DNA of 13,271 bases from Chloroflexota bacterium (GTDB taxonomy: Bacteria; Chloroflexota; Dehalococcoidia; Lucifugimonadales; JADFKI01). Below are positions 105-13,271 of the stretch, one piece after another. Location of the stretch: assembly GCA_027623195.1 (NCBI GenBank), contig JAQBUT010000045.1:1-13271 (forward strand). The letters are read 5' to 3'. Below the pieces are notes generated by a model. It was given only the letters and a program-made list of their open reading frames with translations, was not told where the DNA came from and ran no database searches. The position numbers and the translations under genes were made by a program. Position 1 is the stretch's first letter. Every line of letters starts with the position of its first letter.

Positions 105-476
105 TTGGCTAAAGTAAGAGTTATGTACTGGAAGGAGATTCCAGTGCAGGTACAGGCTCAGGACGACAATGAAACGGTTTCCCGGCCCATGGACGACCGT
201 TTCCAGCAGGGCGTCGACGCCGTATCCATGTTAGACGGCAGCGGCGGGACCGACGACTACCTGATGGCCTGGGAGTGGGGCGATTTCCAGGATGTCGAAG
301 GGAGTCCCAAGGACGCAGCGGAGATTATCGCGACACGTTACGAGCTGCATTTCCCTAAGAACTTCGTGGCTCGGATACGGGACCTCCATCGAAATGGAAA
401 CCGGGACCCGCAACCAGGCGCGGTAGACCACTGGCTTGGCGACCCGGAATCAACCGCAGATAACGGAGCTGGTTAA
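105..476 (+). CDS. Virulence_fact (PF13769)-like small protein
   Basis: 123-aa ORF with TTG start. The N-terminal YWKEIPVQV, RFQQGVDAVSM and DYLMAWEW motifs are typical of this family. Its stop overlaps the next ATG (TAATG 474-478). Confidence 0.75.
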   Translation: MAKVRVMYWKEIPVQVQAQDDNETVSRPMDDRFQQGVDAVSMLDGSGGTDDYLMAWEWGDFQDVEGSPKDAAEIIATRYELHFPKNFVARIRDLHRNGNRDPQPGAVDHWLGDPESTADNGAG

Positions 477-1384
477 TGACACAAACTAACGCCCCCGCGC
501 TGACCATACTTGAGCGTCTCGCCAAGGGCGACGTGCTCATATCAGACGGCGCCACCGGCAGCTATCTGCAGCAGCACGGCCTAAAAGACGGCGACCCCGA
601 GGAGTGGAACGCCACCCACCCGGAAGTTGTGCAGAATATGGCCAAGGCCTACTTCGACGCAGGCTCCGACATGGTTCTGACCAACACCTTTGGGGGCACG
701 GCGCTACGCCAGTCCCACTACGGTTTCGAGAATCGAATCGCTGAATTCAACATTCTCGCAGCGCATCACGCTCGCAGCGTTGCGCCGGAAGGCTGCTTTG
801 TCGTCGGGTCGGCAGGCCCCACGGGCGTGCTAATAGACGACCCGCTGAGTGACAACCCCGTTTCAGATGAGCAGGCATACGAGGCTTTTAAAGAGCAGAT
901 CATGGCTTTGGCGGAAGGCGGCGTGGACGCGGTAAACATCGAGACGATGATAGACGTGCGCGAGGCGAAGCTGGCCATCAAGGCGGCCAAGGACAACACG
1001 GACCTCATCATCAGCACCACCATGTTCTTCGACAAGGGCCCACGGGGGTTCTTTACCATGATGGGCACGACTCCAGATGTGGCGGTACGGGAACTCCATG
1101 AGGCTGGCGCAGACATCGTGGGCGCGAACTGCGGCAACGGAATAGACGTAATGGTTGAGCTGGCTCGCGAACTGCGGGCTGCCACAGACGGTTACCTCCT
1201 GATACACTCCAACGCAGGCATTCCTGCCATGAAGGGTGGACAGATCATTTACCCGGAGTCGCCGGAGTTCATGGCGGAGCGCTTCAAGGTGCTGGTTGAA
1301 GACGTAGGCGTCAACATTATTGGCGGCTGTTGCGGCACCACGCCCGACCACATCCGCGCCTTGCGTAAGGCGATACGAGGATAA
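476..1384 (+). CDS. homocysteine S-methyltransferase family protein (stand-alone MetH Hcy-binding/BHMT domain)
   Basis: DGATGS, PEEWN, TNTFG and ETM motifs, plus the Zn-ligand motifs GANC and IIGGCCGTTPDHI; 302 aa. Confidence 0.93.
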   Translation: MTQTNAPALTILERLAKGDVLISDGATGSYLQQHGLKDGDPEEWNATHPEVVQNMAKAYFDAGSDMVLTNTFGGTALRQSHYGFENRIAEFNILAAHHARSVAPEGCFVVGSAGPTGVLIDDPLSDNPVSDEQAYEAFKEQIMALAEGGVDAVNIETMIDVREAKLAIKAAKDNTDLIISTTMFFDKGPRGFFTMMGTTPDVAVRELHEAGADIVGANCGNGIDVMVELARELRAATDGYLLIHSNAGIPAMKGGQIIYPESPEFMAERFKVLVEDVGVNIIGGCCGTTPDHIRALRKAIRG

Positions 1385-1428
1385 CCCGCACCCATATTCC
1401 TAGCTCGAAATATCGTAAGGTGAGATCA

Positions 1429-2103
1429 ATGACCGAGGCCAAAGCGAAGCCACGACCAGGCGCAGAGGAAGTCATAGAAAAGTATGGCCGCTGCCTGGAG
1501 CTCGTGTCCATGGATCCGCACTTCCACAACGTCAGCGTGGGCCTATACCTCAAGGGCGACGTCTGTACGGTGTGGTCGTTCAGCAGCAAGCCCGGCTTGG
1601 CGGAACGCCTGCAGCAAATTCGCGATCAGATGATAGCCCTGGGCGACATGGACCCCGTCGAAGGCTCAACAAACCAGGCGAGGTTCCGTTGCGGCGACCT
1701 ACACCCGCGCCCCGTTAAGTTCCTGCTGAGCCAGGCGGTAGGCAAGGCACCCGACTACGCCCCAGCAGACGACATGTCCATCAGAGATTCCAAGTCGGCG
1801 TTGACGCTGCGTTTCACTGGCCACGAAGAAGAGGGGCGATGGTCATACAGCGTTTCCAGCGAGGGCGAGGCCCCCAATCCTGCCGTCCGAATTCGCATGG
1901 TGGTGGCCGGCTTCGTGCGCTACGGTGAGATGGAGAAGCTCAACGACACTGATGTCGCCTTCGCCTGCGGCCGGCGCCACGACGGGCTGGTGCGGCTGTT
2001 GATGCCCTACTCGCGCAACATTTCCAGTGTGGAGGGCATGATGGAAGCCGAAGCACTGCGCGGCCAGATGACGACCGGCACGCTCGGCTTCTCGCAGACG
2101 TAG
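1429..2103 (+). CDS. hypothetical protein with internal two-fold repeat (FxCGxxH twice)
   Basis: Long ORF with host-like GC3 bias. SD-like TAAGGTGA (1416-1423) favours ATG 1429 over GTG 1420. No family recognised. Confidence 0.8.
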   Translation: MTEAKAKPRPGAEEVIEKYGRCLELVSMDPHFHNVSVGLYLKGDVCTVWSFSSKPGLAERLQQIRDQMIALGDMDPVEGSTNQARFRCGDLHPRPVKFLLSQAVGKAPDYAPADDMSIRDSKSALTLRFTGHEEEGRWSYSVSSEGEAPNPAVRIRMVVAGFVRYGEMEKLNDTDVAFACGRRHDGLVRLLMPYSRNISSVEGMMEAEALRGQMTTGTLGFSQT

Positions 2104-2111
2104 GGGACATT

Positions 2112-2357
2112 ATGAAAGATTACTCAGTTATATCCGAGTCTAAGGATGTGCTTGGCGGCACTCCTGTATTCCGGGGGACTTGCGTTCCCATCAAGAACCT
2201 GATGGACTACCTTGCGGCGGGGCAAGACCTCGACGAGTTTTTGGACGACTTTCCTACGGTGACGAAGGGGCAGGTTAAGGAATTACTAGAGATAGCCAAG
2301 CAGGCCGTATTGAGCGACACCACGGCAACGGATGCGTTAGGCTTCTCACAAACCTAA
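2112..2357 (+). CDS. DUF433 family putative antitoxin
   Basis: DVLGGTPVFRGTCVPIKNLMDYLAAGQDLDEFLDDFPTV is the DUF433 pattern, although the usual GTRVP reads GTCVP here. Confidence 0.88.
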   Translation: MKDYSVISESKDVLGGTPVFRGTCVPIKNLMDYLAAGQDLDEFLDDFPTVTKGQVKELLEIAKQAVLSDTTATDALGFSQT

Positions 2358-2364
2358 GGAGGAA

Positions 2365-2528
2365 ATGAATTTCACGATAGAAATCGAACAAGAAGTGGAT
2401 GGTCGTTGGATTGCAGAAGTTATGGAACTTCCGGGTGTTCTTTCTTACGGAACTAATTCGGGTAAAGCCAAAACAAAGGCTCAGGCATTAGGCCTACGTT
2501 TGTGACCGATAAACTTGAGTGCGGCTAG
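2365..2528 (+). pseudogene. HicB-like antitoxin, frameshifted near the 3' end
   Basis: AGGAGG at 2357-2362 and ATG at 2365 give MNFTIEIEQEVDGRWIAEVMELPGVLSYGTNSGKAKTKAQALGLRL* (stop 2503-2505). The -1 frame continues VTDKLECG* (to 2528), matching the usual HicB-like tail LRVxADRLExG. Confidence 0.8.
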
Positions 2529-2549
2529 ATCTAAAAGGAGCCCAAACAC

Positions 2550-3581
2550 ATGCCACTAATCGAGACAATGACGCCACGAGAGCGGGTGATGAACGCGCTT
2601 GCGGGAAAACCTGTGGACCGCACGCCTGTTGCGAACCCCACCAACGTGGCCACCGTGGAGCTGATGGACCTGGTGGACGCGCCCTTCCCGGAAGCCTGCC
2701 GCGACCCCGAGTTGGCCGCGCGTCTGGCGGCGACCGGACACACGGAGTTAGGCTTCGACGCCATAGCGCCATACTTCACCATCATCCAAGAGTCGTCGGC
2801 GCTGGGCTGCGAGATGCAGTGGGAGGAGAAGGACAACTGGCCCACGGTGCGCATGAGCAACCCCATCTGGAAGGGCCCCGACGACATCAAGATTCCCGCC
2901 GGGTTCTTGGAGCACCGGGACAATCTCGCCATTACCCGCTCGATCAGCCTGTTGAAGGAAGAGTTCGGCGATAAGGTGGCAATCATAGGCAAGACCATGG
3001 GCCCCTGGACGCTGGCGTACCACGTCTTCGGCGTAGAGGCCTTTTTGCTCATGACCGTGGACGACCCCGACATGACCCTGCGATGCCTCCACAAGCTAAA
3101 GGAAATTTCGGTGCTGTTCGGCCAGGCGCAAATCGCCGCCGGCGCCGATGCCCTGACATTTCCCGACCACGCCACGGGCGACCTCGTTAGCGGCGAGTAC
3201 TACAGGCGGTTCCTCCTGGAAATCCATCAGGAGATGGTGGACCGGTTCAGCGCGCCGCTTATCCTTCACATCTGCGGCAACACCCTGGACCGCATGCCCT
3301 ACATCGCGGAGACCGGCATGGCGGCGTTCCACTTCGACTCCAAGAACGACCCTCAGGAGGCCATGGACAAGGTGGACGGCAAGATCGCGCTGGTGGGCAA
3401 CATCAACAATCCCGATACGCTATACGCCCGTGGGCCTGAGCAGGTACGCGCCGAGGTGTACAAGTGCCTAGACGCCGGTGTACAGATGATAGCGCCGGAA
3501 TGCGCCATTCCTCTGGCCACAAAGCTGGAGAATCTAATCGAGATTCCCCGCGCCGTGAAGGAATGGACGGCCTCCCACTAG
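2550..3581 (+). CDS. MtaA/CmuA family (URO-D fold) methylcobamide:thiol methyltransferase
   Basis: MTPRERVMNALAGKPVDRTPV, VELMD...FPEA, GPWTLA and GNIN motifs, plus the Zn ligands LHICG and APEC. SD AAGGAG upstream. Confidence 0.9.
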   Translation: MPLIETMTPRERVMNALAGKPVDRTPVANPTNVATVELMDLVDAPFPEACRDPELAARLAATGHTELGFDAIAPYFTIIQESSALGCEMQWEEKDNWPTVRMSNPIWKGPDDIKIPAGFLEHRDNLAITRSISLLKEEFGDKVAIIGKTMGPWTLAYHVFGVEAFLLMTVDDPDMTLRCLHKLKEISVLFGQAQIAAGADALTFPDHATGDLVSGEYYRRFLLEIHQEMVDRFSAPLILHICGNTLDRMPYIAETGMAAFHFDSKNDPQEAMDKVDGKIALVGNINNPDTLYARGPEQVRAEVYKCLDAGVQMIAPECAIPLATKLENLIEIPRAVKEWTASH

Positions 3582-3686
3582 TTTCAGTGGAGTAGAGCGG
3601 ACGCCAATTCTGGTAGATGCGGACTTTTAAACGCATATTTCAATAGAACCGGATATTAATCGACTGTTGTGAGGATACCCAAAAAT

Positions 3687-4442
3687 ATGCCGATACATAA
3701 CGAGGGCCTGGCCAAGGAGATGGAGTACGTCACCAAGCCCTTCGAGATAGCACACATCAAAGGCCTTTTCGAAACCACGGACTCTCTGATGCACGACATT
3801 GCATATAACCTGATCGTCGGCAACCATACCGTGGTGGACACTCTTACTCAAAAGGCCCTAGCCGATGGCTATACGGCCAACGACATCATGGACGACGGCC
3901 TGATTGCCGGTATGGCCATCGTGGGTATTAAGTTCCGCGACAACTATATCTTCGTGCCCGAGGTGCTGGTGGCCGCCCGCGCAATGAAAGCCGGTATGGC
4001 ATATATCGAGCCTATCCTTTCCGCGTCCGGCATTGAGCCCATTGGCACCGTCATCATGGGGACGGTTAAGGGCGACCTGCACGACATCGGCAAGAACCTG
4101 TGCATCATGATGCTTCGCGGTGCTGGCTTCGTCGTCCACGACCTGGGCGTCGACACCAAGCCCGACGAGTTCATTGACGCCGTCATGGAGCACGAGGCGC
4201 AAATCCTCGGCATGTCGGCGCTGCTGACCACAACGATGCCCAACATGGGCCGCACCATCGAGGCAATCGAGGAGGCGGGCCTACGCGACGCCGTTAAGGT
4301 TATGGTGGGAGGCGCTCCCCTAAGCCAAGAGTTCGCTGATGACATGGGAGCCGACGGCTACGGGGGCAACGCCATCGAATGCGTGGACCTGGCCAAGGAA
4401 TTTGCGAAACTGAAATCGGTATCCGCAGCGGGTTCCGACTAA
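3687..4442 (+). CDS. corrinoid (cobalamin-binding) protein, MtbC/MetH B12-domain type
   Basis: FVPEVLVAARAM cap, GTVKGDLHDIGKNL (DxHxxG), MSALLTTTM and VGGAP motifs. GAGGA at 3671-3675 favours ATG 3687; the track start is GTG 3669. Confidence 0.93.
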   Translation: MPIHNEGLAKEMEYVTKPFEIAHIKGLFETTDSLMHDIAYNLIVGNHTVVDTLTQKALADGYTANDIMDDGLIAGMAIVGIKFRDNYIFVPEVLVAARAMKAGMAYIEPILSASGIEPIGTVIMGTVKGDLHDIGKNLCIMMLRGAGFVVHDLGVDTKPDEFIDAVMEHEAQILGMSALLTTTMPNMGRTIEAIEEAGLRDAVKVMVGGAPLSQEFADDMGADGYGGNAIECVDLAKEFAKLKSVSAAGSD

Positions 4443-4464
4443 GTCGAGAGGCCATTTTTAAACG

Positions 4465-4767
4465 ATGCCTGAAGACCAACGACCAGAAGAAGTTCCTAAC
4501 AGTGAACCGGTGGACAGAAGCCGTTACGAGTCCAGTCTGCAGCGGCTGGATGACATCTTTCGAGATATCTCTGGCACTGTCACCGAGGTTTCCAAGTGGC
4601 GATGCCCTTACAAGAACGTGGAGAACGAGTGCACCGCGAACTTCGGTTGCCGGAACCAGGACCGCTCCGTGCCGGAAGGCGATCTGTTCATCTGCACCAG
4701 CGACGATAAACTAGACTACCGTTCTGCCTGGGATATTTCGGATGAACGGCGGACCACCATAGAATAA
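4465..4767 (+). CDS. small cysteine-rich hypothetical protein (C-x8-C-x5-C-x14-C)
   Basis: 100-aa ORF in operon orientation with GAGAGG upstream; contains WRCPYKNVENECTANFGCRNQ...FIC. Confidence 0.75.
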   Translation: MPEDQRPEEVPNSEPVDRSRYESSLQRLDDIFRDISGTVTEVSKWRCPYKNVENECTANFGCRNQDRSVPEGDLFICTSDDKLDYRSAWDISDERRTTIE

Positions 4768-4831
4768 GCAGCAGACCATATACCATGCTTATGCGTCTAA
4801 AAAATCGAATTGGCAAAGAAGAGGATGGGAT

Positions 4832-5269
4832 TTGGCGGAAACTAAATTAGAGCTATCGATATTCATTAAACGGCCCATTGCTGAAGTATTTGAATTCGTC
4901 TCCAAGGCCGAGAACATGCCTAAGTGGGCCGCGAAAATAGTCGATGCTGCGCAGACCTCAGAGGGGCCCATCGAGGTTGGCACCACCTGCTACGTGACCG
5001 CCAAGGCCATGGGCCGCGAGGCCACACAGGATTTCATCGTAACCGAGTGCGTCGAGGACAAGACTTACGTCGCCAAAAGCACATCCGGCCCCGTGCAGAT
5101 GGAGACGCGGTACGATTTGGACCCTGCTGAAGAGGGCACGAATGTCCGGGCTACTGTCTTGGCCAACATGGGCGGAATGATGGCCGTGGCCGGTCCATTT
5201 CTGGCCCGCAAGATGAAGAAGCAGTTCGAAGAAGACCACGCCAACCTCAAGTTGTTGCTGGAATCCTAA
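4832..5269 (+). CDS. SRPBCC / polyketide cyclase-like family protein
   Basis: SIFIKRPIAEVFEFVS...NMPKW, GPIEVGT and the C-terminal helix DHANLKLLLES. GAGGA upstream of the TTG start. Confidence 0.85.
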   Translation: MAETKLELSIFIKRPIAEVFEFVSKAENMPKWAAKIVDAAQTSEGPIEVGTTCYVTAKAMGREATQDFIVTECVEDKTYVAKSTSGPVQMETRYDLDPAEEGTNVRATVLANMGGMMAVAGPFLARKMKKQFEEDHANLKLLLES

Positions 5270-5300
5270 TCCGATTGCCGCGTTAGCGCCGGGTCGTAAA

Positions 5301-5309
5301 TGCTAAAAT
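5301..5309 (+). promoter_or_regulatory. extended -10 promoter, probable leaderless transcript of the ASKHA gene
   Basis: TG-C-TAAAAT ends 6 nt before ATG 5316, with no convincing SD. Confidence 0.55.
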
Positions 5310-5315
5310 AGGCGC

Positions 5316-6938
5316 ATGGCTCCCCTTCACTACGACCACCACCGCCTCGAATCCGAGGTAGACAAGACTCTATTCGATTACGCTGACTCGCTGAAAGTTC
5401 GCGTGCCCACCTCCTGCGGGCGCACTGGAGAGTGCCACGAGTGCATTATCGACATCAGGCGCGGCATGGACGCCCTGTCGCCCCACTCGGATGCAGAGAG
5501 GTTTCTGCGAGAAAGCTATAGACTGGCCTGCCAGGTAACTATCCTTGAACCTGACGCCGACGTGGAATTTTCGGTGCTCAGACGCCAACCCCGTATCCTC
5601 ACAGACTCCATTCGAAGAGAAATCGACCTTAACCCCGTCACCCATCGTCAGGGCGACGCTGTGTACCACGGAGACCGGCGCATAGACGATTACCGAGGCC
5701 AGATGTTTGGTCTGGCCGTGGACTTGGGCACCACAACCGTAGCCATAAACCTGGTGGACCTGGAGTCCGGAAATGTGATGTACACAGCTTCCTTCGAGAA
5801 CCCGCAGCGTTTCGGTGGAAGCGACATTATGAACCGAATTTCATACGACGGTGGGCCGTTTAAGGGAGAGCTTCAACAGGTCATGCTATCGGCCGTAAAC
5901 TTCGAGATTGGCGATATGGCCAGGCAACTGGACTTCCACAGGCGCAGGATTTACGAGATCGTCATCGTTGGCAACGCCACAATGCGAGACATATTCTTCG
6001 GAATCGACGTCCAGTCCGTGGGGGAGCGCCCTTACAAATCTATCACCGAGCTTGAGATGCTGGACGGCCAGAGGGAAACCACCGCGCTAAACGTAAGCGC
6101 TCGTGATCTTGGCCTGCGTATATTTCCAGATGCGAACGTTTACGGCGGGCCACTGATAAGCTCCCACGTGGGCGCCGACGTTGCTGCCGACCTTCTGGCC
6201 ATCGGCATCGATCAGGAGGAAGACCTGGTAATGCTGGTGGACGTGGGCACCAACACGGAGGTCGTGCTGGGCAACAAGCACAGGCTGATGGCGGCCTCAT
6301 GTCCCGCTGGACCTGCCTTTGAGGGCGGGGAGGTCACCTACGGCATGCCTGGCTACGATGGCGCGGTCGAGTCCATCACGCTTGAGGGGAACAAGGTTAG
6401 CTACCAGACTATTGGAAAAACGCCGCCAGAAGGCATTTGCGGCTCCGGCCTGGTGGACCTGTTGGCGGAGCTTCGGCGTACGGGGAAGATGACCGAGTTA
6501 GGTGTCCTGGAAAACGGCCAATACGAGTTCGCTTTCGCGCCCGAGAATGGGCTAACACTTTCCAGGGCCGACATCAGCGCACTGGCGCAGGCGAAGTCTG
6601 CCAATTACGCGGGACAGTTCATCGTCATACGGAACTACGGAGAGCCTGCTGCCAAGATATCAAAGCTCTACCTCGCCGGTGGTTTTGCCAACTACATCAA
6701 CGAGGCCAACGCCGTTGCCATTGGGTTCATAGCAAATCTTCCGCAAGGGCGCATCGAGAAGGTGGGCAACGCCTCTCTCGAGGGCGCGACCATCATGCTG
6801 CTGTCCGGCAGGCTAAGACAGCGTATGGAGGAGATGGCCCGCCAGATCGAACACGTGGAACTGGAGACTACTCCCGACTTCTTCGACATTTTCGTCGAGG
6901 GCTGCATGTTCAATCCCATGATTAGCGACATAAAGTAG
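5316..6938 (+). CDS. ASKHA-domain (DUF4445/RACo-type) ATP-dependent reductive activator of corrinoid proteins with N-terminal 2Fe-2S domain
   Basis: SCGRTGECHEC...RLACQ ferredoxin motif, plus DLGTTT, NPQRFGGSDIMNRI, DVGTNTE, CPAGPAFEG, GICGSG, LAGGF and GNASLEGA. Confidence 0.93.
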   Translation: MAPLHYDHHRLESEVDKTLFDYADSLKVRVPTSCGRTGECHECIIDIRRGMDALSPHSDAERFLRESYRLACQVTILEPDADVEFSVLRRQPRILTDSIRREIDLNPVTHRQGDAVYHGDRRIDDYRGQMFGLAVDLGTTTVAINLVDLESGNVMYTASFENPQRFGGSDIMNRISYDGGPFKGELQQVMLSAVNFEIGDMARQLDFHRRRIYEIVIVGNATMRDIFFGIDVQSVGERPYKSITELEMLDGQRETTALNVSARDLGLRIFPDANVYGGPLISSHVGADVAADLLAIGIDQEEDLVMLVDVGTNTEVVLGNKHRLMAASCPAGPAFEGGEVTYGMPGYDGAVESITLEGNKVSYQTIGKTPPEGICGSGLVDLLAELRRTGKMTELGVLENGQYEFAFAPENGLTLSRADISALAQAKSANYAGQFIVIRNYGEPAAKISKLYLAGGFANYINEANAVAIGFIANLPQGRIEKVGNASLEGATIMLLSGRLRQRMEEMARQIEHVELETTPDFFDIFVEGCMFNPMISDIK

Positions 6939-7036: not shown

Positions 7037-8032
7037 ATGGCATACAAGGTACTGGTGACCGACTACGTTTGGCCGAATACCGACCCTGAACGCGCCGTGT
7101 TAGCCAAGATAGGCGCCGAGCTTATCGAGGCCCCAGACGCCAGTGAAGACACGCTGGCATCGATGGCGACCGACGTGGACGCTATCCTCACCTGCTTTGC
7201 CCAGGTCACTGAAAAGGTTGTTCGGGCGGCGAAGAAGTGCGTCGTGATAGGGCGCTATGGCGTCGGCTTCGACAACATCGCCGTTGACGTGGCCACGGAG
7301 CTTGGCATGGCGGTGACCTACGTCCCCGACTACTGCGTCGAAGAGGTCTCAGACCATGTGCTGGGCCTGATATATGGATGGAATCGACGCATTCCCCTTT
7401 TCGACAACTCGGTCAAAACCACAGGCTGGGGCAGTGTTACGCTGGACATGCCAATTCTCAGGCTGCGCGGCAAGAAGCTTGGTCTATTGGGATACGGTCG
7501 CATCGGTCGAGCGGTCGCCCAGAAAGCTCAAGCCCTGGGCTTTCAGGTGCTTGCTCACGACCCTTACGTCTCCAACGCCGACCCAGGCGTAAGCATTGTG
7601 GACATGGAGACCGTGCTCAAAGAGTCCGACTTTATCTCTATTCACACTCCTTTGAGCGCCGACACTGAAAAGCTGATCGGGGCGAAGGAGTTGGCTCTAA
7701 TGAAGCCAACCGCATTCCTCGTAAACTGCGCCCGCGGACCGCTGATCGACGAGGAGGCCCTTTACGACGCCCTGAGCAACAAACGAATCGGGGGCGCAGG
7801 CCTGGACGTTCTGGTGGAGGCGCATCCCGCTCCAGACTACAAGTTGCTGAAGTTGGACAACGTTATCATAACGCCCCACGTTGCCTTCTTCTCCCAGGAA
7901 GCTGTGCTGGAGCTAGAAGAGCGCGCCGCTGGAGAGGTGGTGTCAGTGCTGCAAGGCAAGATGCCCGAAAACCTGGTCAACCCTGACGTGCTGACACACC
8001 CCAACCCAAGGCACAGCCTGTCGGTAGGGTGA
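7037..8032 (+). CDS. D-isomer-specific 2-hydroxyacid dehydrogenase (CtBP/SerA-like)
   Basis: RYGVGFDNI, VPDYCVEEVSDH, GYGRIG, LVNCARG, GAGLDV and TPHVAF motifs. AGGAG at 7026-7030 supports ATG 7037 rather than TTG 6989. Confidence 0.92.
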   Translation: MAYKVLVTDYVWPNTDPERAVLAKIGAELIEAPDASEDTLASMATDVDAILTCFAQVTEKVVRAAKKCVVIGRYGVGFDNIAVDVATELGMAVTYVPDYCVEEVSDHVLGLIYGWNRRIPLFDNSVKTTGWGSVTLDMPILRLRGKKLGLLGYGRIGRAVAQKAQALGFQVLAHDPYVSNADPGVSIVDMETVLKESDFISIHTPLSADTEKLIGAKELALMKPTAFLVNCARGPLIDEEALYDALSNKRIGGAGLDVLVEAHPAPDYKLLKLDNVIITPHVAFFSQEAVLELEERAAGEVVSVLQGKMPENLVNPDVLTHPNPRHSLSVG

Positions 8033-8196: not shown

Positions 8197-9254
8197 TCAA
8201 GGGTTCATGCGGTAGAGGCGGAACTGCGGATTCTCTACCTCCAGAACGTCGACGCTGCTGAAGCCCGCCTCCGCCGCATATTTGCGGACCGCGGATGGCT
8301 TGATGACCGTACCCGTCTGCACTGAATCAGGGAATCCCATAGCCTGGGGCAGGCAGTGCAACACACTGAAGTTGTAGAACATGTGCCCCATGAAGTTAGT
8401 GTTCTCTTCCAAGGTATCCTCTACAGCCTCGTCGGCGACCAGCACAGCGCCGTTCGGGGCTGCCAGCGCCCTCATGGCCGCAAGAGCCGATACCGGATAA
8501 GGCAGGTCGTGTAGACACTCGAACGCCGTCACCAGATCGTAGGGCCCTTGAACCGACGCATCCTCGACCGTCGTGGAGTGAAAGGTTACCTAATCTGCTA
8601 CGCCCGCCTCTGCTACATGTCTCCGGGCCTCCACTAGGGACAGCTCATCGGGGTCGATGCCATCGACTCTGACATTCGGAAAAGCCCGCGCCACCGCGAT
8701 TGCGGACCAGCCTATGCCGCAGCCAACTTCGGCCACGCGACCTCCGGCCTGTAGCTTGGCCTGGACGTCGGGCATGGCGGGTATCCACGACTCTACGTAA
8801 TCATGAATGAACATGGGCTTCGTCAACAGGCCCTGCCCGTTCACCATGTCGATGCCGTACTCCTCGTAGGGCACGTCTCCCCCGTGCGGAAGGCCTCCAT
8901 TAGTTTTGGCAGGACGCTGGTGAAGCTGGACATCCAGCCAAAAACGCCCATTCCAGAGGCCGTGTGATCGGGATTGGTAAAAACCGTCGCGTGTTCAGGG
9001 GACAGAGAAAATTCGTATGTTGGCGGGGCGTAATCCAGGTATTCACCGGCCGCCATGCACTCCAACCATTCGCACACGTATCTCTCGTTCAGGCCAGTCC
9101 TGGCGGCAAAGGCATTTGCGGTTACAGGCCCGGACTCCACCAGCGCCTTAAACAAGCCCAATCTGTCGCCGATATACATATTAATAATACTCATTCCGCC
9201 GTTGAGTTCTGTAAACAGCCGCTCCTGCAGTGCCTAAATCTTACTGTTGTCCAA
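8197..9254 (-). pseudogene. class I SAM-dependent methyltransferase with N-terminal winged helix (Rv2258c-like), disrupted
   Basis: GGAGG precedes TTG 9254. Motifs IGDRLGLF, ERYVCEWL, VAEVGCGIG, YDLVTAFECLHD and SVLHCLP are present. Lesions: in-frame TAG at 9234-9236, a 1-nt loss in the G5 run at 8879-8883, and in-frame TAG at 8590-8592. This joins three track ORFs into one gene of about 352 aa. Confidence 0.9.
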
Positions 9255-9498: not shown

Positions 9499-10668
9499 AT
9501 GATGGAAAACGTGATTGTCAAATTTCATGAGCTGGCCCTCAAAGGCAAAAACAGGCCCATGTTCATCCGCAAGCTTGTACAGAACCTCAGACAATCTGTA
9601 CAAGGCACCGGGGTTAAGAAAGTCTGGCGCGGGCACATGCTGGTGGGCATGACGATGGCCGAGGATGCGGACTGGCCGGAGATATCGACGCGCATACGTG
9701 ACTGCTTTGGCGTTGCCAAGTTCTTTCCGGCGCACAAGGTCGGACTGGACCTGAACGAAGTTAAGGAACTGCTCCCATACGAGCTAAGCCAACGTAAGTT
9801 TGATAGCTTTCGCATCACAGCCCATCGCTCCGACAAGCGCTTCCCCACGCACTCCAGCGACATCAATCGCGACCTGGGGGCGTTCGTGCAAGAGAAGACC
9901 GGGGCAGCCGTCAAGCTGAAAAACCCTGACCTGGAGATTTTCCTGGACATCCACCAAGACGGCATCCTGGTCTACTTCGACGAGGTGCAGGGCTACGGCG
10001 GAATGCCGGTGGGCGTCAGCGGCACGACGATGGCACTGCTTTCGGGTGGCATAGACTCGCCGGTGGCCGCGTGGTACATGATGAAGCGGGGCAGCACATC
10101 AAAGTTCGTACACTTCCACAGCCACCCGCTGGTAGACACTTCGTCCATCGAGAAGGCGGAAGAGCTAACGCAAATGCTGACCCGATACCAGTACAACTCA
10201 GAGCTTTACCTGGTGCCCTTTGCCAAAATACAGCAGCAGATAATCGTCTCCGTGCCCCCATCCTATCGCATTGTGCTCTACCGACGCTTTATGGTGCGCA
10301 TCGCCGAGGCGTTGGCTCGAAAGCACGGTGCATCCGCGCTGGTTACGGGCGAGAGCCTGGCGCAGGTGGCTTCGCAAACGCTGGACAACATCACGGTCAT
10401 CGACGATGTGGCTAACATGCCCATCCTACGACCGCTAATCGGCTTCAACAAGGACGAAATCATCGACGTAGCACAGGAGATCGGCACCTACCCGGTCTCC
10501 ATACTGCCGGACCAGGACTGCTGCACGCTATTCGTGCCCAAGCATCCGGTCATCCACGGCAACCTCGGCATGGTTAATAAGCTGGAGGCCGCGCTCCCCG
10601 TCGACGAGATGGTCGCCGAGACCCTGGAACAGGTAAAGCTACGCGAGTTCGTGTTTCCGGAAAATTAA
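9499..10668 (+). CDS. thiI: tRNA 4-thiouridine(8) synthase ThiI (THUMP + PP-loop, no rhodanese domain)
   Basis: ELALKGKNR N-terminus, THUMP region, LLSGGIDSPVA PP-loop, and VTGESLAQVASQT, ILRPLIG and DCC motifs. Confidence 0.95.
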   Translation: MMENVIVKFHELALKGKNRPMFIRKLVQNLRQSVQGTGVKKVWRGHMLVGMTMAEDADWPEISTRIRDCFGVAKFFPAHKVGLDLNEVKELLPYELSQRKFDSFRITAHRSDKRFPTHSSDINRDLGAFVQEKTGAAVKLKNPDLEIFLDIHQDGILVYFDEVQGYGGMPVGVSGTTMALLSGGIDSPVAAWYMMKRGSTSKFVHFHSHPLVDTSSIEKAEELTQMLTRYQYNSELYLVPFAKIQQQIIVSVPPSYRIVLYRRFMVRIAEALARKHGASALVTGESLAQVASQTLDNITVIDDVANMPILRPLIGFNKDEIIDVAQEIGTYPVSILPDQDCCTLFVPKHPVIHGNLGMVNKLEAALPVDEMVAETLEQVKLREFVFPEN

Positions 10669-10721
10669 GCGAAGCAACATCGCTCCTTGGCAAATCCGTT
10701 GTGGCCGGATATCCAAAATCC

Positions 10722-11498
10722 CTAAATCAGCGAGTGGCTTTGGCCGCCGTCGATGACGATGCAGGAGCCGGAGATCAGGCTGGAGCGCTCCGACGCGAGA
10801 AACGCCACCAGATCGCCCAGCGGCTCGGGGTCGCCGAACTTGCCCATGGGCAGGTTGTTTTTGATGAAGTCGTCCACGACCTCTTTCGGCTGGTCCCGCT
10901 GGAACGTCTCCCAGGAGCCACCGTCGTGTGAGATCGAGCCAGGCGCGATGCTGTTTACCAGTACACCGTCCTTGCCCAATGTCTGCGCGGCGTGCTTGGT
11001 GGCCGCTATAAGCGCGGCCTTGGCCGACATATAAGAGATGTTTCCGCCCCACTCCCGACCGTATATAGACGCTATGTTGATGACGCGTCCCCACCCCTGC
11101 TGCCGCATATGCGGTATGGCAAGTTGCATCAGTTCGAAGCCGCCAAACAGGTTTAGATCAAAGGTCGCCCTGTATGCGTCCAGCGACACGGCGGTTATGT
11201 CCTCGCGGGCCTGGGAGCCGCCGGCGTTGTTTACTAAAATGTCGATCTGCCCTAGTCCGTCTACTACCTGGCGGTGCAAAGGCTGGATATCGGACTGCGT
11301 TGCCACGTTTGCAATGATTCCGATGGAGTTCACGCCTTTGGCCTTTAACTCGGCCACCGTCTTGTCCAGCGTATCCTGCGTGCGGCCGCAAATGGCCACG
11401 TTGACGCCCTCCTGGGCCAGGGACAGCGCGGCCTGCCTACCCAATCCACGGCTCCCGCCGGTTACTAGGGCCACCTTGCCTTTAATTCCCAAGTCCAT
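10722..11498 (-). CDS. short-chain dehydrogenase/reductase (SDR)
   Basis: TGGSRGLG, DILVNNAG, YMSAK (YxxxK), VNSIAPG and IDGG motifs. AAGGAGG SD upstream. Confidence 0.95.
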   Translation of the reverse strand: MDLGIKGKVALVTGGSRGLGRQAALSLAQEGVNVAICGRTQDTLDKTVAELKAKGVNSIGIIANVATQSDIQPLHRQVVDGLGQIDILVNNAGGSQAREDITAVSLDAYRATFDLNLFGGFELMQLAIPHMRQQGWGRVINIASIYGREWGGNISYMSAKAALIAATKHAAQTLGKDGVLVNSIAPGSISHDGGSWETFQRDQPKEVVDDFIKNNLPMGKFGDPEPLGDLVAFLASERSSLISGSCIVIDGGQSHSLI

Positions 11499-11580
11499 GA
11501 AACGCCTCCTTCGTATGTCTTATAGATGACGGGCAAAAGATTATCATGTAGCAACACTCACCACAAACACCAGGCCAACC

Positions 11581-11609
11581 TTGACGCAGGAATGCCTCTG
11601 GCCTAACAT
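11581..11609 (+). promoter_or_regulatory. sigma70-type promoter for the PHP-MaoC operon
   Basis: TTGACG (11581-11586), 17-nt spacer, TAACAT (11604-11609), ending 6 nt before TTG 11616. Confidence 0.65.
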
Positions 11610-11615
11610 TCGGTA

Positions 11616-12266
11616 TTGATGTTTCTTGACCTTCATACACATTCAGTGTCCTCCGACGACTCCCGCGCGACCGTGGAACAGTACGTCAAATGGGTGTCGG
11701 TACTGCGGCGCAAGGGCAGCCAGGTGGACGGATTCGTCCTCACCGAGCACCGCCAGTTCGACGGCGATAAGGACTATTCCGGATTATCCGAGGACAACGA
11801 TGTGGTAATCCTTAAAGGGTCTGAGCTGGACACCAACTACGGTCACTTCCTGGTGTACGGTGTGACTCAGGAACTTCTTAATGAGATCGACTTCACCAGG
11901 GTCGGCCTAGACGCCATCGAACTTATGCGAGCCGCAGATGCCCACGGGGCCATTGCGATTCCGGCTCACCCCGGCAGGTTCGGCATAGGGCTGGTAGAGT
12001 ACATAGACAACGGCTCGGACTTCAGCGGCGTTAAGGCCGTGGAGCACCTCAACGGAAGCAACAGACCGGGCGAGCAGGAGCGGGCCGAAGGGTTAATTAG
12101 CCAGCGCGGCTACGCAAGCACCGGCGGCAGCGACGCCCACGTGGTCAGCGCCATCGGAACCTGCATGACCAGCTTCGAAGGTGTGATTACGAATGAGGCC
12201 GATCTGGTCCGAGAACTTCTTTCCAAGAATTTTAAGGCAGTCCACTTAAACGAGGCAAAGGCTTAA
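11616..12266 (+). CDS. PHP domain metal-dependent hydrolase
   Basis: DLHTHS, LTEH, GSE...GHFLVYG, PAHPGR and GGSDAH motifs. The start may instead be ATG 11619. Confidence 0.9.
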   Translation: MMFLDLHTHSVSSDDSRATVEQYVKWVSVLRRKGSQVDGFVLTEHRQFDGDKDYSGLSEDNDVVILKGSELDTNYGHFLVYGVTQELLNEIDFTRVGLDAIELMRAADAHGAIAIPAHPGRFGIGLVEYIDNGSDFSGVKAVEHLNGSNRPGEQERAEGLISQRGYASTGGSDAHVVSAIGTCMTSFEGVITNEADLVRELLSKNFKAVHLNEAKA

Positions 12267-12733
12267 TGACAACCGACGACGAAATAAAGTACGACCGCAG
12301 CCTGTTGGGCGTTTCCAATAAACTGGGGCAATTTCCCGTAACGTCTCAGATGATTCTGGATTTCGCCCAGTCCACTGGTGAGACGAATCCGGTCCACTCC
12401 GACGAAGCCAAAGCCCAAGCGAGCGAGTTCGGAAGCCTGATCGCGCCGCCGACGTTCTGCAACGTGTTCGTTAACGGCCTCACCCGCCCGGACATCAAGC
12501 TGGAGTTTGGCGACATCGGTTTCTTCGCAGGGCAGGCCGTGGAAAGCCTTGCGCCCATCCGGCCCGGCGACACACTGAACGCGTCCACCATGCTGAAAGA
12601 GGTCTACGCCAAGACGGGGCGCTCCGGCACGATGGTTTTCGCCGTGTGGGAGACCAGCTTCACGAACCAGAACGACGACGACGTGGCACGAGTACAGGAG
12701 TCCTACGTCAGAAGGAACAGCAGGGCCAAGTGA
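12266..12733 (+). CDS. MaoC-like hotdog dehydratase, N-terminal/HadA-type subunit
   Basis: FAQSTGETNPVH, LIAPPTF, PIRPGDTL, KTGRSGTMVF and FTNQ motifs. TAATG overlap with the PHP gene. Confidence 0.88.
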   Translation: MTTDDEIKYDRSLLGVSNKLGQFPVTSQMILDFAQSTGETNPVHSDEAKAQASEFGSLIAPPTFCNVFVNGLTRPDIKLEFGDIGFFAGQAVESLAPIRPGDTLNASTMLKEVYAKTGRSGTMVFAVWETSFTNQNDDDVARVQESYVRRNSRAK

Positions 12734-13164
12734 GCAGAGAACTTTACTTCGAAGACGTAGAGATCGGCGACGACATCGGGCCGGTGGAGCGCACAGTAAA
12801 TAAAGACCAGGTGGTTCGCTTCCTAAGCGTTCACCAGGGCCGTGACACGGGTCCAAACCGCTTCACCAGTGAAGAGGCTGCGGAAAAAGAGGGTCTACCC
12901 AACGCTATCGTACCCGGGGCCATGAACATCGCAATGATGTCTACCCTGCTAACGGGCTGGGCCGACACCGCCCGCCTGAAAAAGCTGGACGTGGTCTTCC
13001 GGGGAATGGTCCCCCACAACAAGATCTTAACGCTAGCGGGTATCGTTACCGACAAGAACGTTGTAGACGGCGAGGCCAGGTTGGAGTGCGATGTATTCCT
13101 CCAGAACGACGAGGGCACACGGCTAATAATAGGCAACGCCATAGTGCTGCTGCCGACGAGGTAG
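12730..13164 (+). CDS. MaoC-like hotdog dehydratase, HadB-type subunit
   Basis: GTG 12730 overlaps the upstream TGA (GTGA). LYFEDVEIGD, AEKEGLPNAIVPG and VVFRGMV motifs. The track start at 12646 is an upstream over-extension. Confidence 0.85.
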   Translation: MSRELYFEDVEIGDDIGPVERTVNKDQVVRFLSVHQGRDTGPNRFTSEEAAEKEGLPNAIVPGAMNIAMMSTLLTGWADTARLKKLDVVFRGMVPHNKILTLAGIVTDKNVVDGEARLECDVFLQNDEGTRLIIGNAIVLLPTR

Positions 13165-13271
13165 TAGATAAAGCGCTGTGATACATGAGTCATCCCGAAT
13201 TTGGATGATTCTAGGAAAAGTATAAAAAGAAGGCCTCTCAAGGTAGACTTTGGGTGATGAAACCTGAGTCA

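Follow-up and report, generated by a model that had tools for sequence, protein, structure and literature searches.

A corrinoid methyl-transfer operon with an MtaA-like enzyme and a stand-alone homocysteine methyltransferase in a Chloroflexota bacterium: a candidate folate-independent methyl hub

We present an analysis of a corrinoid methyltransferase operon on contig JAQBUT010000045.1 of a Chloroflexota bacterium from the class Dehalococcoidia (assembly GCA_027623195.1). The stretch analysed, referred to below as the window, is one entire contig of 13,271 bases (C7) from a genome that is 87% complete. Four core enzymes are encoded co-oriented on its + strand between positions 476 and 6938, as identified by an open reading frame (ORF) scan and Pfam/NCBIfam profiles, namely a stand-alone homocysteine (Hcy) methyltransferase, a zinc methyltransferase related to MtaA, a corrinoid protein and a RACo-type reductive activase. 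The operon is a real, conserved and apparently undescribed variant of a corrinoid methyl hub; a literature search for a description of it, or for SAR202 in combination with corrinoid, methyltransferase and methionine, found none among the papers listed, and Dataset S2 of PMC12478193 and the cluster lists of PMC10418091 may include members. Judging from sequence comparisons, we consider it somewhat better than an even bet that the MtaA-like enzyme, together with an unnamed protein designated U227, transfers a methyl group from a methyl-thioether to the corrinoid protein and that the Hcy enzyme passes it on to homocysteine, which would yield methionine without folate, the pterin branch being optional and lost here.

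The operon and its products

The features of the operon are given below with their positions in the window. Numbers of related loci refer to the best 80 of 238 loci from GTDB, a set that is biased to close relatives, overlaps the 61-genome set described in the next section and has flanks of at most 8 kb.

23–51, + strand: sigma-70-like promoter, TGGACA-17-TATAAT, matching 11 of 12 consensus positions; a consensus match with a predicted start site
105–476, + strand: accessory protein of family PF13769 ("Virulence_fact"), E 4e-15; 59 of 80 related loci
476–1384, + strand: stand-alone homocysteine-binding methyltransferase (MetH N-domain / MtgE type), PF02574 E 1e-64; 79 of 80 loci
1420–2103, + strand: U227, unnamed two-repeat alpha/beta protein of 227 amino acids; 80 of 80 loci
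2112–2357, + strand: DUF433 protein (Pfam); 37 of 80 loci
2365–2505, + strand: 46-codon remnant, UPF0150/HicB-type antitoxin-like (weak Pfam match, E 0.13, below cut-off), a passenger
2550–3581, + strand: MtaA/CmuA-family (URO-D fold) zinc methyltransferase, the proposed donor-side methyltransferase (MT1); TIGR01463, 254 bits against a cut-off of 235
3582–3695: 114-base gap, in many relatives the site of a pterin-binding (MeTr/MtgD-type) gene, empty here; pterin subunit in 10 of 80 loci
3696–4442, + strand: corrinoid protein with cap and B12-binding domains and a DLHDIG motif (start in the ORF scan GTG 3669); 74 of 80 loci
4465–4767, + strand: U100, unnamed four-cysteine protein of 100 amino acids; 72 of 80 loci
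4832–5269, + strand: SRPBCC/polyketide-cyclase-fold protein (Pfam), a passenger; 3 of 80 loci
5316–6938, + strand: RACo/ASKHA ATP-dependent corrinoid reductive activase with N-terminal 2Fe-2S (Fer2), middle and C-terminal domains; 44 of 80 loci
7037–8032, + strand: D-2-hydroxyacid dehydrogenase (Pfam), its orthologue distributed like RACo (44 of 61 genomes); 32 of 80 loci

Domains and motifs confirm the four core enzymes, which the original prediction had placed at these positions and on the same strand from the DNA sequence alone. Its claim that the window holds no pterin-binding or MT1 gene of known type agrees with the profile scan, in which none of 18 ORFs matched PF00809, MttB or MtaB. 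It had also counted four uncharacterised proteins; accessory ORFs are indeed present, their number is five, and three of them belong to the Pfam families PF13769, DUF433 and SRPBCC. The dehydrogenase, which lay outside the range of the original prediction, belongs to the module as well. Distances between genes within the operon range from -1 to 114 bases. The promoter-like site at 23–51 precedes the first gene, which indicates that the operon probably starts inside the contig and is not truncated at its edge; the window contains four promoter-like sites in total against 3.8 expected by chance, and TATAAT-like boxes were noted by eye ahead of the first gene in many of 40 relatives. An Rfam scan of the window gave no matches, and no exact inverted repeat, as in an operator of the SahR type, recurred in more than 3 of 56 upstream regions, exact repeats only being considered.

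The zinc site of the MtaA-like enzyme comprises H240-I-C242 and C318, and His240, Cys242 and Cys318 are invariant in all 56 aligned homologues. According to Kountz and Balskus (PMC10418091), a His-Cys-Cys site marks the S- or Se-transferases of the superfamily, while O-demethylases swap Cys for carboxylates. Taken together, this rule and the invariance of the ligands point to sulfur or selenium substrates. The nearest solved structure is MtaA of Methanosarcina mazei (4AY7/4AY8; E 1e-51, 31% identity, TM 0.89). The protein lies below the equivalog cut-offs for MtaA (NF040654, 231 of 400 bits) and MtbA (NF041608, 209 of 600 bits), and it is 31–37% identical to four methanogen proteins whose group bears the annotation "methylthiol:coenzyme M methyltransferase". 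Identity to the CmuA N-domain is 23% over 269 amino acids (E 2e-7) and CmuA is without the H-x-C-G motif, which leaves little for the CmuA-like role on methyl halides that had been considered earlier. A phylogeny against MtaA and CmuA references had also been proposed; in a quick tree of 75 rows, which include neither the characterised MtsA (M. barkeri) and MtpA (M. acetivorans) nor Mlp sequences and in which CmuA and CmuC2 are long branches, the protein forms a group of its own, a 54-row clade (SH-aLRT 99) that shares a conserved DHATxDL-type motif and stands apart from the MtsA-annotated and MtaA-like reference rows. The gene is the sole member of the URO-D family (PF01208) in five of five genomes tested; of other donor-side enzymes, MttB was found in one of 61 genomes and MtaB in none of five. 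A plasmid search with the protein returned 40 records, all below 30% identity and mostly HemE.

U227 has no match in Pfam or NCBIfam. Its AF2 model (pLDDT 89) predicts two alpha/beta repeats, its two C-x3-H motifs are conserved in more than 90% of 32 distant homologues, and in every intact module its gene lies ahead of the MtaA-like gene. When the two proteins were modelled as a complex from paired 56-row alignments, the score was 0.90 over three runs against 0.01 for the best control, with contact agreement of at least 88% and a partner pLDDT of at least 87. The mark used for this score is attained by 116 out of 157 complexes of solved structure and by 2 out of 215 mismatched pairs, figures that hold only roughly when own alignments are supplied. 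The predicted interface includes MtaA-like residues 31–45 (with T31), the loop 93–99, H207 and residues 318–330, and thus the zinc ligand C318. The modelling supports a two-subunit enzyme in which U227 would be the second, non-corrinoid subunit. Recall of a known complex by the predictor is unlikely because U227 is without a solved relative in the fold searches, Foldseek giving no match at E 0.001 and VIA-align a best Z of 6.4 (rmsd 3.4 over 90 aligned residues), which is within the common range. The best ESM Atlas score for U227 is 0.78, and the lack of a family match does not show a new fold.

The Hcy enzyme carries GANC at residue 216 and GGCC at residue 283, which supply Cys219, Cys285 and Cys286. 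Among PDB entries it ranks the MetH domain of Thermotoga maritima first (E 7e-48), ahead of BHMT (7e-18) and MmuM (9e-8), and it stays under the cut-offs of the BHMT/MmuM-type families (PRK07534, 232 of 338 bits; PRK09485, 77 of 215 bits). It is 40% identical to Bmt of Sinorhizobium meliloti. The best model for the corrinoid protein is MtgC_2 (203 bits, below the cut-off of 370), and the RACo linker domain had no match in the profile scan. U100 has no Pfam match, and its ESM Atlas matches are unnamed Chloroflexota clusters. Its C47, C56, C62 and C77 are conserved in 95–100% of 22 distant homologues, and its gene is located between the corrinoid gene and RACo, with the SRPBCC gene intervening here. 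It is a probable metal-binding helper of RACo or of the corrinoid protein and may have a reactivation role in place of DUF1638.

The dehydrogenase is linked to RACo both in occurrence and in position. At E <1e-80 its orthologue has precisely the distribution of RACo, 44 of 61 genomes, made up of all 43 carriers of the MtaA-like gene and one 70%-complete genome (G003), with two weaker matches (E ~1e-78) in other genomes; the gene usually follows RACo, even where both have left the operon. In a FastTree phylogeny the window copy falls together with cluster-linked dehydrogenases of another family in the phylum (support 91), apart from the 11 paralogues of its own genome. This linkage suggests that a 2-oxo or 2-hydroxy acid takes part in the pathway. 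We also considered the enzyme as a reductase of the CtBP type, CtBP having methylthio-oxobutyrate as its substrate, and rejected the assignment: CtBP ranks below PGDH, McyI and glyoxylate reductase, and the sequence names no substrate.

Conservation of the operon and routes to methionine

Among 61 genomes, the MtaA-like gene was found at 72–93% identity in 43 (in two as fragments only), across one order; the carriers are kin, and the counts are not independent. Neighbourhoods were fetched for 20 of the 43, three from the family of the window and one from each of 17 other families. As the original prediction anticipated, the MtaA-like gene is syntenic with the Hcy enzyme in relatives (79 of the 80 GTDB loci). 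These loci include four Entotheonella and two SAR324 records, where the copies are 82–85% identical. Since the enzyme is so similar in these lineages and within the order, it probably acts on one widespread metabolite.

The claim that the system has no folate module is true of this copy and not of the family. A PF00809 pterin subunit of 340–350 amino acids follows the MtaA-like gene in 13 of the 20 neighbourhoods, all of them from other families (13 of 17). The pterin gene mostly lies directly ahead of the corrinoid gene, locus L121 having it upstream, and in two of the 13 neighbourhoods MetV and MetF are also in the operon. Across the 43 carriers, 13 have the pterin subunit only, 21 a full MetH only, none both and nine neither. 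With the subunit in the operon of 13 of the 43, the folate-free state is a derived state and not the design of the family. Loss of an upstream pterin gene at the contig edge was considered as an artefact and rejected, given the promoter at 23–51 and the place of the pterin gene in relatives, between the MtaA-like and corrinoid genes. In one locus (L264, G028:C4) the operon is split in two: the Hcy, MtaA-like and pterin genes make up one unit, and the corrinoid gene lies elsewhere in another, together with MetV, MetF and RACo.

MTHFR-family genes are present in 60 of the 61 genomes, including those that have neither pterin subunit nor MetH. Six carriers of one genus (G005, G009, G010, G011, G013, G018) have no match to a pterin subunit, MetH or PF01717. 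In four of them (G005, G009, G011 and G018; 1–2 contigs, 94–99% complete) FolP is the sole PF00809 match, no MetE-family protein was found, and S-adenosylhomocysteine (SAH) hydrolase, a source of homocysteine, is kept; three of these four were checked for B12-binding domains and encode one free corrinoid protein, that of the operon, and a longer B12-domain protein. The shuttle may be the only methionine route of the six carriers. A fused alternative, in the form of ORFs of 620–780 amino acids that match both Hcy methyltransferase and MTHFR, occurs in genomes of the same order that are mostly without the operon (G032, G034, G036, G038, G044, G045, G049, G054, G059, G060 and G027).

The genome of the window itself is differently equipped. 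A genome-wide search for the MeTr, metF, metE, metH and MT1 genes had been recommended, and it recovered the folate-linked genes and no known MT1. The genome encodes a 1244-amino-acid full-length MetH (C64), MetF (C37), a weaker MTHFR-family gene (C40) and two tandem MetE C-terminal-domain (PF01717) proteins of 369 and 381 amino acids (C16:62153–64492); profile searches gave a single URO-D-family gene and no match to MttB, MtaB or DUF1638. Because MetH, MetF and the two MetE-C-like proteins are encoded, this organism has an ordinary folate route to methionine, to which the operon is an extra that is not needed for methionine. Related genomes have up to 13 PF01717 matches, beyond what methionine synthesis requires. 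FolP and full MetH are the only PF00809 matches in the genome (87% complete). A 292-amino-acid PF00809 gene on C32, tried as a hidden pterin subunit, was rejected in favour of FolP on the strength of an NVTPDSFS motif, which we take to be that of FolP, and a neighbour that is presumably FolK-like.

A second pair of PF13769 and Hcy methyltransferase genes (65% and 59% identical) lies on a 3.5-kb contig of this same genome (G000:C45:1-1274), where it is cut by the contig end and adjoins a 471-amino-acid ORF that by eye resembles a transposase. Second Hcy paralogues were examined as partners of a hidden transferase and rejected, none of nine fetched loci having an adjacent pterin, corrinoid or MtaA-like gene. 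In three of the nine, from genus g4 (L250:9477-10613, L253:9400-10536, L254:10408-11556), the stand-alone Hcy paralogue is followed by a conserved 379-amino-acid protein with no Pfam match.

More distant relatives were taken from metagenomes (the best 80 of 307 loci, 56 with a homologue of 55–72% identity) and from a phylum sample (301 genomes, 34 with a match, 20 fetched). Among the 56 loci, 21 have U227, the corrinoid protein and RACo; ten of these have the Hcy enzyme only, five the pterin subunit only, one both and five neither in the available DNA. Where flank was adequate on both sides (31 loci), 20 have both U227 and the corrinoid gene, seven neither and four one of the two. A divergent GntR/FCD regulator is found in seven loci and PurU in three, as in catabolic one-carbon units. 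Enzymes of a sister clade (44–47% identity) in L144, L145, L152, L153 and L154 occur with a pterin subunit, a corrinoid protein and RACo and with no Hcy enzyme, and two of these five loci have the same dehydrogenase; by analogy, their layout would be that of a three-part demethylase. Six other sister-clade loci, from one family, have a polysaccharide-deacetylase-like neighbour and no corrinoid gene. The MtaA-like enzyme and the corrinoid set thus appear to be constant, with homocysteine and folate as interchangeable partners, and a constant core with variable outputs is the pattern expected of a donor-side enzyme; the direction of transfer is not fixed by it.

Two further arrangements were noted among the distant loci. 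In family f69 (L147–L151, L155, L157) the sister-clade MtaA-like gene stands beside a protein of ~400 amino acids with a polysaccharide-deacetylase domain, without corrinoid genes. On a plasmid of Gemmatirosa kalamazoonensis (L240:7814-14001) a URO-D protein, a corrinoid protein, RACo, an activation-domain-like protein and an Hcy enzyme are encoded together, and on visual inspection a PF13769-like tail seems to be fused to the corrinoid ORF.

As for the remaining genes of the window, we regard those for DUF433 and SRPBCC as passengers, found in only 37 and 3 of the 80 related loci, respectively. The site between U227 and the MtaA-like gene is an insertion hot spot, where DUF433 is often accompanied by DUF5615 or DUF4268 genes. 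The six C-terminal residues of the DUF433 protein are the same as those of U227, and 25 of 42 bases are identical between 2062–2103 and 2316–2357; a second copy of the U227 tail is seen in only 1 of the 80 related loci, and it looks as if the DUF433 insertion duplicated the end of U227. Further downstream, 8197–9194 of the - strand encodes an S-adenosylmethionine (SAM) methyltransferase with an Rv2258c-like winged helix-turn-helix domain, split over three frames (8841–9194, 8590–8874, 8197–8532) and apparently frameshifted. The region 9499–13164 encodes ThiI, an SDR, two MaoC proteins and a PHP-family protein. Genes resembling these also follow the operon in several relatives, apparently as part of the background gene order. 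The contig ends in a repeat of ~90 bases (~13181–13271) that is 100% identical over 65–91 bases to the ends of seven other contigs and probably broke the assembly.

Proposed methyl transfer and its alternatives

We propose that the operon would act as a corrinoid methyl hub, with a fixed core made up of the input enzyme (MtaA-like protein and U227), the corrinoid protein and a reactivation set (RACo, U100 and probably the PF13769 protein), and with exchangeable outputs. Zinc held by His240, Cys242 and Cys318 would bind the sulfur of a small R-S-CH3, and the Co(I) corrinoid would take the methyl group. By homology to MetH and MtgE, the Hcy enzyme would then pass it from the corrinoid to homocysteine, the net reaction being R-S-CH3 + Hcy = R-SH + Met, a thioether exchange without folate. 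RACo-family activases carry out an ATP-dependent rescue of Co(II) corrinoids, and RACo would do so here. In relatives with the pterin subunit the same corrinoid would also trade methyl groups with tetrahydrofolate (THF), and the set would be their split MetH; in the present lineage the pterin gene would have been lost, folate-dependent synthesis would fall to the separate full MetH, and the operon would remain as a methyl-salvage route. The dehydrogenase probably makes or removes the donor or the thiol product in its 2-oxo or 2-hydroxy acid form, and we favour, as a guess, a methylthio-oxo or methylthio-hydroxy acid (derived, for example, from S-methylcysteine or methionine) over dimethylsulfide as the donor.

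Methyl transfer from a thioether to cob(I)alamin is uphill by ~+20 kJ/mol (Fu et al., 10.1101/548461). We infer that coupling to homocysteine methylation would repay this cost, which would allow the module to persist without folate. The same figure counts against the proposal where pterin-only clusters are concerned, since these would run more easily in the opposite, thiol-methylating direction, and several other observations count against it as well. Few of the distant U227-type clusters have the dehydrogenase as a neighbour, and where they do it is 29–39% identical; seven of the 31 distant loci lack both U227 and a corrinoid gene around the enzyme; and no recurring substrate-specific transporter or catabolic gene was seen beside the operon in the fetched loci. 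The genome of the window has MetH, MetF and two MetE-C-like genes of its own, the six genomes without another methionine synthase are of one genus and not independent, and in three of four tested genomes the PF01053 enzyme is absent at E 1e-20, so that they may be methionine auxotrophs.

The alternative to which we give most weight, unlikely as we take it to be, is that the MtaA-like enzyme is a second methyltransferase (MT2) that passes the methyl group of the corrinoid to a thiol, sulfide or selenide, either for detoxification or for a methylthio product; the methyl group would come from CH3-THF where the pterin subunit exists and, by reversal of the Hcy reaction, from methionine where it is absent. 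This would accord with the closest solved structure, that of the MT2 MtaA, with the downhill direction of transfer from a CH3-corrinoid to a thiol (10.1101/548461), with the existence of pterin-only clusters (5 of 21) and with the methylation of selenide and sulfide in vitro by an Mlp2 (PMC10418091). It would also leave the pterin-less copies with methionine, the cell's costly product, as their sole methyl source, and the six genomes without a recognised methionine-forming route despite the two Hcy enzymes that they keep, and the GntR/FCD regulator and PurU neighbours fit catabolism. Folate as the input after all, whether the corrinoid is loaded from CH3-THF by the MtaA-like enzyme with U227 or in trans by the pterin domain of a full MetH, strikes us as improbable: 13 genomes keep the pterin subunit beside an MtaA-like gene 72–82% identical to that of the window, which argues that the two are not redundant, and nine carriers have no MetH that could act in trans. 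The idea draws on MtsF/CmtA, an MtaA-family fusion that prefers methyl-tetrahydromethanopterin in vitro (10.1101/548461), on the suggestion of Kountz and Balskus (PMC10418091) that an Mlp could be an undiscovered folate transferase, and on the MTHFR-family genes in 60 of 61 genomes noted above.

We rate no higher the case for a methyl halide or an O-methyl compound as the donor, as for CmuA, CdmB and the URO-D O-demethylases. Halide and O-demethylases are indeed contained in the URO-D superfamily (PMC13222342), the PurU, MetF and pterin neighbours in some loci resemble the cmu layout, and a 2-hydroxyacid dehydrogenase would suit the conversion of a methoxy-acid to a hydroxy acid. The CmuA N-domain is nevertheless only 23% identical and without H-x-C-G, CdmB, which is zinc-free, matches only at E 1e-5 with a profile, and all three ligands are invariant here where O-demethylases have carboxylates for the Cys ligands (PMC10418091). 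Slightly more remote again is a Bmt-like Hcy enzyme that acts alone on a sulfonium or betaine donor, with the corrinoid module as a separate co-transcribed unit. Bmt of Phaeobacter inhibens made methionine from dimethylsulfoniopropionate or betaine without cobalamin in vitro, at 200 uM enzyme and 200 uM donor (PMC12366255), the window protein shares 40% identity with the S. meliloti Bmt, and second stand-alone Hcy paralogues lie away from any corrinoid gene; the window enzyme nevertheless resembles the cobalamin-dependent MetH domain far more closely in sequence than it does BHMT or MmuM, 79 of 80 loci keep its gene next to the MtaA-like gene, and it is the sole visible second partner of the corrinoid in pterin-less operons.

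Relation to known systems and significance

The operon works like the roseobacter MtgBCDE and the mlp clusters and is a member of neither, because it lacks the MttB enzyme, DUF1638 and pterin subunit of MtgBCDE and, unlike type 1 mlp clusters, has one Mlp only. MtgBCDE with a split methionine synthase is described from Ruegeria pomeroyi, P. inhibens and S. meliloti (Mausz et al. 2025, PMC12478193). There too a shared corrinoid protein joins a donor-side transferase, a pterin subunit and a stand-alone Hcy subunit, with RamA/ASKHA reactivation (PMC12478193); a PF13769 gene is a neighbour, the window protein being 37% identical over 60 amino acids to the "virulence factor" of the S. meliloti bmt/MtgBCDE region, and the carriers are mostly without full MetH. 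The pterin subunit of the relatives is 35% identical to that of S. meliloti, and the window Hcy enzyme 40% to Bmt. The two systems differ in the donor-side enzyme, which is of the URO-D/MtaA type here (MttB-family PF06253 being found in 0 cases in the own genome and in 1 of 61 genomes), in the DUF1638 helper, found in none of five genomes searched here, and in the addition of U227, U100 and the dehydrogenase. The pterin subunit, essential in R. pomeroyi (PMC12478193), is missing from 30 of the 43 carriers.

According to the preprint of Kountz and Balskus (PMC10418091), type 1 mlp clusters need two Mlps or more, and their reported hosts are obligate anaerobes. They share with the operon a bacterial MtaA-like protein with His-Cys-Cys, a co-oriented corrinoid protein and Ram/RACE, and a proposed salvage of methyl-sulfur or methyl-selenide into methionine (PMC10418091). 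The window differs from them in having one Mlp (as in five of five genomes), a MetH-type Hcy enzyme and U227. The type 1 clusters have no folate methylase within 20 kb; the 13.3-kb contig encodes none but does not span that range, and one is present in 13 relatives.

The fold and zinc site are common to the window enzyme and the Methanosarcina systems MtaA/MtbA, MtsA-MtsB and MtpA-MtpC. MtsA and MtpA show that the MtaA family can demethylate thioethers onto a corrinoid, MtpA being a thioether-specific MT1 (10.1101/548461); unlike in those systems, the acceptor here would be homocysteine or folate and not coenzyme M, and a second non-corrinoid subunit is predicted. The Cmu system of Methylorubrum extorquens CM4 and the Cdm system of Acetobacterium dehalogenans likewise combine a URO-D-fold MT1 with a corrinoid and a pterin transferase, with PurU/FolD nearby in CM4, whereas CmuA is fused to its own corrinoid domain and the window genes are separate, and the zinc-free CdmB barely matches. 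Folate-independent methionine synthesis from a methyl-corrinoid protein has been established in principle with MesA-D (Price et al. 2021, PMC7857596). Those enzymes consist of a MetE C-terminal domain (PF01717) and receive the methyl group from MtrA, CoFeSP or MesX (PMC7857596), whereas the Hcy step here would use a MetH-type PF02574 protein with its own corrinoid and input enzyme, and the window has no PF01717 match.

A bolder form of the thioether-exchange proposal can be put forward, which we consider less likely than not: the MtaA-like enzyme and U227 would be a heterodimeric corrinoid methyltransferase of new architecture that demethylates an environmental methylthio-oxo or methylthio-hydroxy acid or a related thioether, with the linked dehydrogenase processing this donor, and the folate-free exchange would be the sole methionine route in some Dehalococcoidia. 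If its role as a subunit is true, U227 would be a new kind of subunit for URO-D methyltransferases, and the heterodimer and thioether exchange, if true, would give SAR202, SAR324 and Entotheonella a role as a so far unrecognised sink for methylated sulfur in dissolved form. SAR202 bacteria are numerous in dark ocean waters and have been linked to the turnover of organosulfur compounds, and a donor, once identified, would mean a new step in the marine cycling of methyl-sulfur. The system would also extend MtaA chemistry past methanogens and strict anaerobes, and it bears on the unproven idea that corrinoid systems salvage thioether methyl groups into methionine without folate, for which the genomes with no other methionine synthase lead to a sharp prediction of growth requirement.

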